64,000 nucleotides of DNA, taken from IMG/VR virus record IMGVR_UViG_3300021963_005267, positions 42,584 through 106,583 of that record, one strand, 5' to 3'. The translations under genes were made by a program, and so were the position numbers. Shown here one piece after another: positions 24,780 to 63,758 of this stretch. A model generated the notes under the pieces. That model was not told the DNA's origin. It made no database searches and was given only the letters and a program-made list of their open reading frames with translations. Source of the stretch: a virus. Positions within the stretch are counted from its first letter, which is position 1. Each line of letters begins with the position of its first letter.

Positions 24780-24860
24780 TCATGGCTAGAAAATGGCGAG
24801 CACATCATAAGAGCTCTGTTCGTGCAACAGCACGTAGAGTTCTTAAGAAACGTAAGTAAA

Positions 24861-25215
24861 GAATTGTTGTAACTCCTTCAAAGCGAAGGACTCTTGGACG
24901 CGGGTTCGACTCCCGCCAGGTCCACCATAAAATGTTTTTGTTGAGCTTGATGCTTTGACTGATCAACATAGCTACATAGGGTAGATAAGAACATTTTATA
25001 ATGGGCCTGCACTGGTTTCGACAGGGGTAGATAGTAGAGACGGCAACACGGTAGGCGATGACCGTAAATCAAGCAAAACAAGTAAACGCAAACGCATTTA
25101 CATCACAAGAGTTATTCGTAGTTAAAAGCGTTAAATTCGCTGCTAACGACGAAATGCTACAAGCAGCCTAATAAGCAACTCCGGGGCAGTTATGCCTTGT
25201 TACCCAAAATAACAG
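24861..25215 (+). ncRNA. ssrA: Circularly permuted (two-piece) tmRNA; outer ends approximate
   Basis: T-arm plus CAGGTCC-ACCA (ends 24927) precedes GGGCCTG (25003), giving an acceptor stem with G3.U70; tag frame 25088-25171 ends LQAA. Confidence 0.92.
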
Positions 25216-25243
25216 AAATGGCTACTTCGGTAGCCATTTTTTT
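25216..25243 (+). terminator. Rho-independent terminator
   Basis: AAATGGCTAC-TTCG-GTAGCCATTT plus T run. Confidence 0.85.
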
Positions 25244-42504: not shown

Positions 42505-43177
42505 AGTTTGGGATACATTGATCAGTGTACAACACCTATTAGAAAAAAGATTTAGTGAAACAGGTGTTGAAACATTTGAACCTGGAATGGATCGTTTTAA
42601 TCAACCAGGTTGGGTAAATAGAGTTTGGTGCAGTGATCATTATCGTAGAGCTCATGTCGATGTAGTGGACGCCCGAGAAACTAAGGGCCTCTGGATGATG
42701 CATTGCTGCATCTTTCCTCATATTCATAATACAGCACCTATATTCGGTTTTGATGTAATTGCAGGTAAAAATAAAATCACAGGTTGTTTTATTGATTATA
42801 GTCCGACAGCAGATAAACAACATCCTATGATTGATTATTTTGCAGAGGAAGTTAGCAGATACGAATGGATTAAAAAACGAGAACTACCAGAATGGGCACA
42901 GCGTATTTTTAGTCCCTACATGATAGCCGCAGGTAATGTACAAAATGAAGATGAATTAAGCCAGATCAGCAGCCTAGCACACATACTGGTAAATCATTAC
43001 TTAGAAACAGTAGGTGAAACTAACAATCGAACTTCAGATACTACATTTGAGCAAAACTACTATGCTCAAAATCAAAAACAAAATCCTCATACTCCTAGAG
43101 TTATGACTAGTTTAGGATTAGATGAAGAAGATGTTCGTGTTTTTATCCAGAATTGTCTGTTCCCAGAAATAAGATAA
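42497..43177 (+). CDS. Ferredoxin-dependent bilin reductase (PcyA/PcyX-like)
   Basis: RRAHV, MMHCCIFP, PIFGFDVIAG, RELPEWA..IFS, QKQNPHT; coupled to the heme oxygenase. Confidence 0.88.
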   Translation: MSKVWDTLISVQHLLEKRFSETGVETFEPGMDRFNQPGWVNRVWCSDHYRRAHVDVVDARETKGLWMMHCCIFPHIHNTAPIFGFDVIAGKNKITGCFIDYSPTADKQHPMIDYFAEEVSRYEWIKKRELPEWAQRIFSPYMIAAGNVQNEDELSQISSLAHILVNHYLETVGETNNRTSDTTFEQNYYAQNQKQNPHTPRVMTSLGLDEEDVRVFIQNCLFPEIR

Positions 43178-61214: not shown

Positions 61215-61687
61215 AACTATTTGGACGCACAGGCGGTTACTGGTTGTTCTGGACAGGAGTCATTTACCTTGTATTTGGCTTACCTGTTGCCTTATACTTC
61301 AAAGACATACCAACACCACTGATACAACTAGTTTGGTTAGTGGCGCTGGCCCTGCCTTTTGCGATTCCACCATTTGGCCGTTGGCTTAACTTAGATGTAG
61401 AATGGGATAGAAAAATGTTAGATTGGCTTAAGAAAAAACCTAGCAATGTAATTCCGTTTCCTGAACAAAAGGAAACCACAGAGTACGGTGGTGGGAGTTA
61501 CGTGCCCCCAGAACCAAAGAAACCTCCTGTAACCTACTACACTCTAGGAATGACCAGTGAGAATCGTGTAGAATTCAAAATGGGTTACAGCGCCATTACA
61601 ATGAATCATGACGGGCTGGTTAACTTAATGGAACAACTCGAAGTCTTTCGCAAACAACTCGCTGAATATGAGGGTATTGAAGAATGA
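61211..61687 (+). CDS. Membrane protein
   Basis: Two N-terminal TM helices. Confidence 0.65.
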   Translation: MKLFGRTGGYWLFWTGVIYLVFGLPVALYFKDIPTPLIQLVWLVALALPFAIPPFGRWLNLDVEWDRKMLDWLKKKPSNVIPFPEQKETTEYGGGSYVPPEPKKPPVTYYTLGMTSENRVEFKMGYSAITMNHDGLVNLMEQLEVFRKQLAEYEGIEE

Positions 61688-61866
61688 GCGGACGTGGTGT
61701 TATAATGCAAGAGCCAGAACAGTTCTGTGAACTGTGTGGCAAGTTAGATGAATGTCGGCCATATGGTCCTAACGATGAACAAATCTGTTTTGATTGTGCC
61801 ATGAAGGATGACGAATCTAAAGCAATCGCAGAAAAGAAAATGGCAGCATATATTTTTGGAGAATAA
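61684..61866 (+). CDS. Small Zn-finger protein
   Basis: CELC...RPYG...ICFDC. Confidence 0.7.
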   Translation: MSGRGVIMQEPEQFCELCGKLDECRPYGPNDEQICFDCAMKDDESKAIAEKKMAAYIFGE

Positions 61867-61941
61867 GCGTCTATCGCCAAATGGAAAGGCAGGGGCCTCT
61901 AAAACCTCTATGCGTGGGTTCGATTCCCACTGGACGCACCA
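61867..61941 (+). tRNA. tRNA with CUA anticodon (amber suppressor)
   Basis: GCGTCTA/TGGACGC acceptor stem with ACCA, GCC/GGC D-stem, loop CT-CTA-AA, GTGGG-TTCGATT-CCCAC T-arm. Confidence 0.85.
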
Positions 61942-61960
61942 AATACAGTTATAAATAAAA

Positions 61961-62057
61961 TGCCGGACCTGTAACCATACTCCGGCTCCGCTGACGCGAA
62001 AACAGGATGGGCTGCGCTCACGGGGTTGATAGTTTCCCGACACAACAAAACTATCAC
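61961..62057 (+). ncRNA. Candidate pseudoknotted RNA after a TATAAATA promoter
   Basis: GCCGGA/TCCGGC, CCGcTGAcGCG/CGCTCACGG, TGATAGTTT/AAACTATCA; loop-loop CCTGT/ACAGG and CCAT/ATGG. Confidence 0.6.
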
Positions 62058-62077
62058 ATAACTTAAAGGAAAATAAA

Positions 62078-62653
62078 ATGAAATAGATTGAATATGCATG
62101 TAAGGACATAGTGTTCCATTTTAACAAAAAACACTTAGAAGATCAGACCATTCCCATGTGGGTCTTAAAATTCCATGGCGAAACTCTTTATGTGAATCAC
62201 GTCGATTGTTCTGTTCCTTGGAGTACCAAAGAAACACCAGATAACAATCATACTAAAGGTAGCATCAAAGTCAAAGATGTGCTGTTGCAGATCAGTGATA
62301 CTAACGAAGCTACAATTTCAAATCTCACTCTAATAGACAAATACAGACTTCGTAATCAAAAGTTGGGTATCACACGAGTGATGTTTAGACCGAGTACTAA
62401 GTTTCATAAGGCGCTACAGGCGAATGAATTTAAGCACAGTCCTTTTAAAACTATATACGGTCGTTGTAGTAGTCCGTTTATCATTTGTGATCTATTAAAC
62501 AAATCGGAAATTACTTTAGCTGCTCTCAAGTACACCAATGACTTTCGTATAGTACAACCTAACGAAACTTATTTCCAACAGTATGATGAGATCAAAGGTG
62601 ATAATATTCCAGTAGATTATGGACATCCTAGCACACCGTTTGAATATAGTTAA
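62078..62653 (+). CDS. Hypothetical protein with an in-frame TAG at codon 3 (amber read-through candidate)
   Basis: AAAGGA SD, ATG AAA TAG ATT GAA TAT GCA TGT AAG GAC ATA GTG, in frame with ORF 62111..62653. Confidence 0.7.
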
Positions 62654-62976: not shown

Positions 62977-63537
62977 GTGAAAAACTTCAATGAATTTAAT
63001 GCGGGCGATCGCGTTGAGGTTAAACTTCTAGAAAATTCGGTACATTTTCTTGTTGGCGAAATTTCAGAAGATAATATCAGCGAGTGTATAAAATGGATAG
63101 TCTATGAAAATCTAGACACCAGCAAACAAAAGATCCTAACACTGTATATCAACTCAACTGGCGGCAATCTTTACGATGCATTTGCCCTCATCGATGTGAT
63201 GAGATCTAGCACACATCAAATCCGAACGATTGGTATAGGAGCAGTAATGAGTGCAGCATTCCTTATATTTGCCGCTGGACATCAGGGTGAACGATATGCT
63301 GCTCGTAACACCAGCTATATGTGTCATCAATTTACAGAAAGTATGCACGACAAATATCACGACCTCAAGGCCACTATGCGAGAGAACGATCTCTGCAATC
63401 AAAAAATGATCAACATATTACGGGATTCAACAGGCTTGACAGCAAGTAAAATCAAAGTTAAACTACTACCAGCGAGCGATGTATACCTTAAGGCAGACGA
63501 ACTCATCGAGCTAGGCGTAGCGGATCACATCCTGTAA
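62977..63537 (+). CDS. clpP: ClpP-family protease subunit
   Basis: [25 protein letters not shown]. Confidence 0.85.
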
Positions 63538-63542
63538 TAAAT

Positions 63543-63758
63543 ATGGCTAAAGAATCAGTTTTAAAAATCTCAGGCACCATCACCGAAGTTTTACCTAACA
63601 CTACATACAGAGTGAAGTTAGAAACTGGAACAGAAATATTCGCTTATACCAGCGGAAAAATGCGCCAACATAATATTAAGATTTTGTTAGGCGATCAGGT
63701 ATCACTGGAGCTCAGCCCTTATGACCTTACTAAAGGAAGAATTGTTTACAGAAAATGA
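63543..63758 (+). CDS. infA: Translation initiation factor IF-1
   Basis: MAKE...EVLPN...SGKMR...[21 protein letters not shown]. Confidence 0.96.

Follow-up and report, generated by a model that had tools for sequence, protein, structure and literature searches.

An invariant in-frame amber codon and a nearby suppressor tRNA as a candidate translational gate on a single gene of jumbo phages

The suppressor tRNAs of phages have hitherto been explained by the wholesale reassignment of a stop codon. In code-15 phages (crAss-like phages, Lak phages and other gut phages), TAG is read as glutamine, as validated by metaproteomics (PMC9523058; context is reviewed in PMC10879173). A tRNA with the anticodon CUA, here tRNA(CUA), is also carried by standard-code jumbo phages with genomes of 340-385 kb, namely Xanthomonas phage XacN1 (PMC5852040) and Ralstonia phage RsoM2USA (PMC8504454). 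The authors of the XacN1 study considered read-through of TAG terminators, and the target genes of the suppressor tRNAs were not identified (PMC5852040); the RsoM2USA paper merely notes the presence of the tRNA (PMC8504454). In designed systems, a suppressor tRNA has been engineered into a feed-forward 'leak dampener' (PMC7969014). Here we describe a locus on the viral contig IMGVR_UViG_3300021963_005267 of IMG/VR, in which a tRNA(CUA) lies just upstream of a gene interrupted by TAG at its third codon, and we propose that this gene is translated only when the tRNA overrides the stop; a gene gated in this way offers phage suppressor tRNAs a testable target. Our reading of the literature on gene-specific amber gates in phages returned recoding papers only and no published description of such a gate. 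The stretch analyzed, hereafter the window, is the final 64 kb (64,000 nt; positions 42,584 to 106,583) of this 106.6-kb contig, for which CheckV estimates a completeness of about 30%. Because the relatives sharing the gated gene have genomes of 330-364 kb, two of them with terminal repeats, the source phage can be considered a jumbo phage. The parts of the locus are as follows, in window coordinates.

61867 to 61941, plus strand: amber-suppressor tRNA with anticodon CUA, encoded CCA, pairs G1-C72, C2-G71 and G3-C70, and A73 (ARAGORN, Rfam, 58 homologues)
61950 to 61957, plus strand: TATAAATA, a motif of T4-late type and putative promoter, 5' of the RNA element and the gated gene
61962 to 62058, plus strand: conserved pseudoknotted RNA, the 5' leader of the gated gene in the source phage (36 unique loci)
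62066 to 62070, plus strand: Shine-Dalgarno sequence AAGGA, 7 nt 5' of the ATG at 62078
62078 to 62083, plus strand: two-codon leader ATG-AAA (M-K)
62084 to 62086, plus strand: in-frame TAG, the gate codon (invariant in two DNA collections)
62087 to 62653, plus strand: body of the gated gene, 188 codons and TAA, with the stop at 62651-62653 (homologues, codon conservation, AlphaFold)

A first-pass annotation of the window had already read these parts as a possible read-through switch, and the coordinates it gave are all correct. Its tRNA(CUA) is called by ARAGORN and matched by the Rfam tRNA model (55.9 bits, E = 2.4e-9), the element TATAAATA is found at 61950-61957, and the Shine-Dalgarno sequence, the ATG at 62078, the AAA and the TAG at 62084-62086 stand in frame with the open reading frame (ORF) ending at 62651-62653.

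The strongest evidence comes from the gate codon itself. A degenerate DNA (IUPAC) pattern allowing TAA, TAG, CAA or CAG at this position was scanned against IMG/VR and the JGI metagenomes, and the codon was TAG in 102 of 102 viral-contig matches and in 116 of 116 unique metagenome loci. Viral loci fetched by similarity have TAG at the exact site in 60 of 61 cases, followed by ATT GAA TAY GCN TGY AAR GAY. A true glutamine codon located 20 codons past the TAG in the same gene toggles between CAG (29) and CAA (19) while the gate codon is invariant in 218 instances; thus TAG itself is selected, rather than being one of several synonymous choices. With this invariance, the arrangement of the locus is far beyond chance. 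The same codon across 102 viral and 116 metagenome instances also disposes of an assembly error or a one-off nonsense allele, and as to whether homologues carry TAG or a sense codon, it is TAG throughout a large clade. Contigs from independent metagenomes covering the locus have the gate TAG without a variant among the differences listed. The region from the RNA element into the 5' part of the gene, TAG included, is spanned both by DNA contigs and by riverine metatranscriptome contigs; in the latter DNA carry-over is possible, and contigs do not reveal transcript ends. The homologous database proteins (more than 1400) fall into two main length classes, one of 191 aa (M-x-Q-IEYACKD) and one of 180 aa (beginning at the Val or Met of VFHF). 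In all, three versions of the gene are stored there, one of 191 aa with Q in place of the TAG, one of 180 aa starting at the internal Val or Met, and one of 165 aa starting at Met24, a pitfall in annotating standard-code phages that have one gated gene. Gene callers therefore either truncate the gated gene (the 180-aa and 165-aa forms) or write Q by switching to code 15; this Q is almost certainly an artefact, since CAA or CAG occupies the site in none of the 218 DNA instances.

The sequence behind the TAG is conserved as protein. It had been asked whether homologues extend N-terminally through IEYACKD; they do so, and in confident AlphaFold models this stretch makes up strand 1, which opens with the residue following the TAG. 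Over codons 1-23 past the TAG, third positions vary synonymously while the residues are kept (TAT/TAC, GCT/GCA/GCG, TGT/TGC, AAG/AAA, GAT/GAC). A Shine-Dalgarno sequence and an ATG are located 1-9 codons 5' of the TAG in all 84 complete unique loci; the leader has two codons in 57 of these 84, with a variable second codon, and the position of the Shine-Dalgarno sequence follows the ATG rather than the ATT behind the stop. Between the TAG and Met24, 19 of 82 loci contain no ATG, GTG or TTG at all. The GTG at 62111, suggested in the first-pass annotation as an alternative start, does exist but is unconserved, with GTG in 58 of 82 loci and GTC, GTT or GTA in the other 24. From the Shine-Dalgarno-served ATG the conserved protein would thus be reachable only through the UAG; the alternative is re-initiation directly after it. 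Homologues outside the clade lack the interruption. In the outgroup contig G006, a homologue 48% identical starts ATG-ATA-GAA with its ATG exactly at the TAG position; distant homologues and the locus L059 begin M-IELACK, again with ATG exactly at the TAG site; and still more distant homologues start M-(x)-[IV]E[IL]ACK without TAG. The leader and the TAG are therefore best seen as a derived regulatory prefix of one large clade.

The second line of evidence is the tRNA. It folds into a canonical cloverleaf with an encoded CCA, a GGTTCGA T-loop and a variable loop of 4-5 nt, and 58 unique homologues exhibit compensatory changes in all four stems, with G1-C72, C2-G71, G3-C70, A73, CCA and the YU-CUA-AA anticodon loop held constant. 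These features mark tRNA(CUA) as a functional tRNA maintained by selection. Comparison with other phage tRNAs designates no clear isoacceptor: Trp, Thr and Gly rank highest, each at a mean identity of about 0.54. The D-arm of the window tRNA looks Gln-like by eye, and the acceptor end of the family (G1-C72, A73) is not Gln-like. The predicted co-occurrence of the tRNA with the TAG gene is borne out: a same-strand tRNA(CUA) is present within the fetched stretch in 65 of 99 unique viral loci, mostly 30-3300 nt upstream, and in 33 of the 52 metagenome loci having at least 2 kb upstream, whereas chance proximity for one tRNA in about 350 kb amounts to about 2%. The genomes G1, G2 and G3, assembled at both ends, possess exactly one tRNA(CUA) each; relative to the gene, it lies 4.7 kb upstream in G1, 8.5 kb downstream in G2 and 0.65 kb upstream in G3; at the G4 locus (L052), it is 1 kb upstream. 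The protein genes on either side of the gated gene lack conservation, which leaves the tRNA as its only recurring neighbor. In the window, it is immediately preceded by a 60-aa ORF (61684-61866, plus strand) with two CxxC pairs, which is zinc-ribbon-like and belongs to PHROG 18256 (unknown function); the tRNA begins with the base right after the TAA stop of this ORF.

The tRNA and the gene appear to be preceded by different transcription signals. Of 106 unique cases of tRNA(CUA), 52 have a TATAAT-like -10 box ending 4-14 nt 5' of the tRNA, and 29 have a full -35/-10 pair; the corresponding numbers are 19 and 9 out of 437 for other phage tRNAs of the same loci, and 2% and 0.35% for random 60-mers. 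The gene has TAAATA, the core of the T4 late promoter, at most 260 nt upstream of the TAG in 62 of 91 unique loci (mostly 30-60 nt before it), against 0 of 91 for a control window inside the gene. This core is about sixfold enriched in the non-coding DNA of the complete relatives, which also encode a homologue of gp55, the T4 late sigma factor (E = 2e-7 to 9e-6). These motifs suggest that the tRNA is early and driven by the host polymerase, and that the mRNA is late and driven by gp55. The window tRNA has no clear promoter of its own, the nearest sigma70-like site being 160 nt upstream. Co-transcription of tRNA and gene is also possible in the window, because no terminator is predicted between them.

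Based on the conservation of IEYACKD, the invariant TAG, the nearby tRNA(CUA) and the standard code of these genomes, which together uphold the read-through reading of the first-pass annotation, we consider it likely that the locus encodes a dedicated suppressor-tRNA gate, in which the protein is made only when tRNA(CUA) overrides the UAG. We infer that the tRNA is charged and decodes the gate UAG; the classes assigned to the promoters and the role given to the gate are likewise proposals. Initiation would take place at the Shine-Dalgarno-served ATG at 62078, and the UAG at 62084 would be met after a single AAA codon. If charged tRNA(CUA) beats release factor 1 (RF1), translation would continue into the conserved 188-residue protein; if RF1 wins, a dipeptide would be released and no protein made. 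Since the stop is codon 3, failure would be nearly free and leave no truncated product. The output would then scale with the mRNA level multiplied by the suppressor-to-RF1 ratio. With separate promoters, of sigma70 type for the tRNA and TAAATA type for the gene, the locus would act as a two-input AND gate or as a dose limiter; with tRNA and gene co-transcribed, it would act as a feed-forward filter against leaky expression. The promoter motifs favor the former arrangement, combining an early tRNA with a late mRNA.

Several observations weigh against this proposal. The outgroup G006, with ATG in place of TAG, still has a tRNA(CUA) 6.6 kb upstream of the gene; thus, the tRNA is older than the gate or not exclusive to it. 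Conversely, the genome G005 (93% complete) has the TAG gene and no tRNA(CUA) in its assembled part, the gene being located 4 kb from a contig end. TAG also ends 4-9% of the called genes, which an efficient suppressor would read through. Tandem back-up stops were sought in this respect, and the distance to the next stop is not shorter for TAG-ended genes (median 10.5-14 codons) than for TAA- or TGA-ended genes (6-10 codons), so there is no sign of adaptation to read-through. A role as a pure timer is doubtful, because an early and stable tRNA would open the gate before the late mRNA is made. Finally, the codon directly 3' of the TAG is ATT in 81 of 82 loci, and this near-fixation could mean re-initiation at AUU.

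Re-initiation is indeed an alternative reading of the start region. In that case ATG-x-TAG would be a mini-ORF ended by RF1, and ribosomes would start again at the ATT next to it or at a GTG or ATG farther on, the suppressor being unneeded or only modulating the ratio. This would be consistent with the fixation of the ATT (81/82) while another isoleucine codon of the gene toggles between ATT, ATA and ATC, with the variable length of the leader, and with the start codon that the outgroup has exactly at the TAG position. However, any stop would serve a mini-ORF, yet TAG is found in 218 of 218 instances and TAA, the commonest stop, never. AUU is moreover a poor initiator, and ATG replaces it in no locus. 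An A after UAG is a favorable context for amber suppression, as known from context studies in Escherichia coli, and this accounts for the ATT equally well. Re-initiation also leaves the same-strand tRNA(CUA) near about two-thirds of the loci unexplained, and we regard it as unlikely.

The strictness of the codon could also reflect the factor that reads it. UAG is an RF1-only stop, and the gate might be a sensor of RF1 or of termination capacity, reporting host RF1 activity much as the bacterial gene prfB does for release factor 2 (RF2), with the phage tRNA setting the baseline. In prfB an early in-frame UGA is bypassed by a +1 frameshift, and the product is the very factor that reads the stop. 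The gated gene resembles prfB in the very early position of its stop, and its surroundings are rich in translation and rescue genes, namely transfer-messenger RNA (tmRNA), initiation factor 1 (IF-1) and ClpP, with ArfB-like and PTH2 proteins in relatives. But no resemblance of the gated protein to release factors, or to translation factors already known, was detected, and there is no sign of it acting on RF1. We give this sensor a small probability, somewhat below that of re-initiation; it is compatible with the suppressor-tRNA gate rather than exclusive of it.

Recoding of TAG genome-wide or in late genes (code 15), with the gated gene as one example among others, is highly improbable. It would fit the phage-encoded tRNA(CUA), the rarity of TAG as a terminator (3 of 82 plus-strand ORFs of at least 80 aa in the window; 6 of 149 greedy gene calls in the 106.6-kb contig) and the database proteins with Q at the gate position, a Q that, as discussed above, almost certainly stems from the gene callers. 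In these genomes, TAA is the commonest stop. However, a greedy gene set under the standard code covers about 93% of the contig, of G2 (331.6 kb) and of G3 (364.2 kb), and about 93% is likewise the coding level of the complete or near-complete relatives G1, G2 and G3. Treating TAG as a sense codon lengthens the ORFs of the contig, G2 and G3 no more than treating TGA or TAA in this way does. A frame-restricted comparison of genomes, which looked for in-frame TAGs with conserved protein running across them, returned nothing credible other than the gated gene. Likewise, pattern scans for a Shine-Dalgarno sequence, an ATG, a few codons, a stop and a long ORF gave no excess of TAG over TAA and TGA controls, the gated gene aside. 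The genome is not recoded, in agreement with the first-pass annotation, and a single conserved in-frame TAG stands in about 93% standard-code coding. Equally improbable is a special non-canonical amino acid inserted at the UAG by a dedicated charging system: the 'Pyl' label given by ARAGORN and the conserved acceptor end GCG...CGC-A-CCA, which fits no obvious host isoacceptor, would speak for it, but the label follows from the CUA anticodon alone, the cloverleaf is canonical, its T-loop being normal and its variable loop 4-5 nt long, and the gate residue is unlikely to be functionally special because it is the third residue of a variable N-terminal extension absent from distant homologues. The tRNA of pyrrolysine has a short D-loop, a 3-nt variable loop, a 6-bp anticodon stem and an atypical T-loop, and this architecture is ruled out here by the canonical cloverleaf, the GGTTCGA T-loop and the 4-5 nt variable loop.

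The RNA between the tRNA and the gene (61962-62058) requires separate consideration. Its sequence is GC-rich and about 90% identical in relatives, and its core was found in 62 viral contigs representing 36 unique sequences. The pseudoknot proposed in the first-pass annotation holds by covariation across these 36 loci; folding energy by itself (z = -0.83) does not set this intergenic RNA apart significantly. Five of the six pairs of the P1 hairpin covary; in the pseudoknot CCUGU:ACAGG, which joins a loop to a downstream segment, U-A changes jointly to C-G in six sequences; a 10-bp bulged helix is invariant; and the terminal hairpin is variable and covaries around a conserved loop. Over the alignment, 99.7% of cells are paired, versus 33-50% when the partner is slid. 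An Rfam scan returned no family and no hepatitis delta virus (HDV) ribozyme match at E<=10. The element sits 5-7 nt past the 3' ends of tRNAs or after a TAAATA motif, and downstream of it lie tRNAs, promoters, a lipoprotein-like ORF or, in the source subclade, the gated gene; one relative among the metagenome contigs lacks it wholly between tRNA and gene. It is thus an independent module of many phage tRNA regions rather than a component particular to the switch. This RNA of about 97 nt occurs in at least 36 unique phage loci, in or at the edge of tRNA arrays (e.g. L070, L081, L210-L250). In L070, L071, L081, L093, L157, L213, L222 and L241, a Shine-Dalgarno sequence and a small ORF lie just 3' of it; this ORF encodes a lipoprotein-like signal ending in Cys (e.g. 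M-R-Y-L-M-V-L-F-L-I-V-G-C-S) and is located between tRNA(CUA) and the gated gene.

By analogy, the RNA element could be a new self-cleaving or processing element. Theta ribozymes, which are minimal HDV-like ribozymes, adjoin phage suppressor tRNAs and lie within 5 nt of the 3' end of mostly CCA-less tRNAs in gut phages (PMC10879173). The element described here is likewise a compact pseudoknotted RNA directly 3' of phage tRNAs, including tRNA(CUA), and its helix order P1-P2-(P3)-P1'-(P4)-P2' resembles that of the nested double pseudoknot of HDV. Unlike theta ribozymes, however, it begins 5-7 nt after an encoded CCA or after TAAATA, it lacks a fixed G-U as the first pair of P1 (G-C in 29, U-A in 4 and A-U in 2), and it has an extra invariant helix and matches no HDV model of Rfam.

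The gated protein has no match in Pfam, PHROG, the PDB sequences or the ESM Atlas, and Foldseek searches with either model gave no match at E<=0.001. AlphaFold predicts it with a pLDDT (predicted local distance difference test) score of 86.6 for the whole protein and 95.7 for the N-terminal domain. The C-terminal domain (residues 92-171) is modeled with the common beta-alpha-beta-beta-alpha-beta fold of ACT/RRM-like type, though the match is weak (VIA-align Z 5.5, root-mean-square deviation (rmsd) 2.8, 72 aligned residues). The N-terminal domain (residues 1-92) is a new beta-rich domain without clear structural relative, its best match being a weak one to an OB-fold (Z 3.7, rmsd 3.8, 67 aligned). 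From these models the protein has two domains, and a role in binding nucleic acids or a ligand is our guess; the matches, being weak and to common folds, do not allow a function to be derived. The N-terminal domain is found again at the C-terminal end of other proteins, about 180 aa in length, among them proteins of Agrobacterium phage Atu_ph07 and Sinorhizobium phage Phosso. A tblastn search of the phage-genome collection gave only four matches, each from a rhizobial jumbo phage and covering just the N-terminal domain, an outcome that bears neither way on XacN1 or RsoM2USA. The hypothetical protein of Atu_ph07 with this domain (MF403008.1, 197705-198226; L297) is encoded a few genes away from a T4-like RnlA RNA ligase and a Ser/Thr phosphatase.

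The window has a GC content of 40%, with nearly every gene on the plus strand, and the stretch is also present in independent estuary, marine, freshwater and soil metagenomes. Shortly 3' of the gated gene are a ClpP-family protease (62977-63537, plus strand; Pfam E = 4e-30) and a homologue of IF-1 (63543-63758, plus strand; E = 9e-23). A permuted two-piece tmRNA is encoded at 24830-25242 (plus strand; Rfam beta_tmRNA 121.8 bits, tmRNA_permuted 129.5 bits). Together with the tRNAs, these genes form a translation and quality-control neighborhood; in relatives, ClpP and IF-1 show no synteny with the gated gene. Each complete relative has one tmRNA, with the beta-proteobacterium-like tags ANDNVYALAA, ANDEVYALAA and ANDSVFALAA; these tags hint at a host lineage of that kind. 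Close to the tRNA arrays of relatives are ORFs for an RF-1/GGQ-domain (ArfB-like) protein, of about 188 codons, or for a PTH2 peptidyl-tRNA hydrolase, which are not universal in the clade. These ArfB-like or PTH2 ORFs are located as follows.

G001:C1:231273-231590
G003:C1:221203-221526
G004:C1:250997-251338

Taken as a whole, a more elaborate picture can be drawn, which we hold to be speculative and rather doubtful in its full extent: a natural AND gate, in which an early tRNA transcribed from a sigma70-type promoter and a late, gp55-dependent mRNA would act together against RF1 to dose or license a new nucleic-acid-binding protein, this gene being the sought target of the orphan suppressor tRNAs of standard-code jumbo phages and its mRNA beginning, in one subclade, with a possibly self-cleaving double-pseudoknot RNA.

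How does this locus compare with the systems already described? The code-15 phages share with it a phage tRNA(CUA), the shunning of TAG as a terminator and a proposed role of UAG decoding in timing protein production. They contain, however, dozens of late genes with many in-frame TAGs, and their coding density under the standard code collapses, whereas the source phage uses the standard code and the interruption is a single codon in a single gene. This gate codon is invariant and not interchangeable with CAA or CAG, and lies at codon 2-10 of an added prefix. Unlike the case of XacN1, a candidate target is identified in the source clade, and it is the 5' end of a gene and not a terminator. With prfB the gated gene has in common a conserved early in-frame stop and an output that would depend on termination versus alternative decoding; there is nevertheless no change of frame in the gated gene, the phage brings a dedicated tRNA, and no likeness of the product to release factors was detected in sequence or fold. 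A further parallel is synthetic. Anderson, Voigt and Arkin reportedly built in 2007 a two-promoter AND gate from the supD tRNA and an amber-containing mRNA for T7 RNA polymerase. In such amber circuits, as proposed here, a suppressor tRNA and an mRNA with an early amber codon come from separate promoters, and the protein needs both; the present system differs in being natural, and its two inputs, of sigma70 type and TAAATA type, are predicted from sequence motifs. A single tRNA and a single invariant UAG at the beginning of one gene, conserved across hundreds of environmental phage genomes, would, if our interpretation is correct, constitute a gene-specific translational switch with the genetic code as its control element. 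The natural tRNA(CUA) scaffolds, apparently orthogonal-looking, and the fixed UAG-AUU context may also be of use for expanding the genetic code, and the switch itself would be the natural counterpart of the designed circuits.

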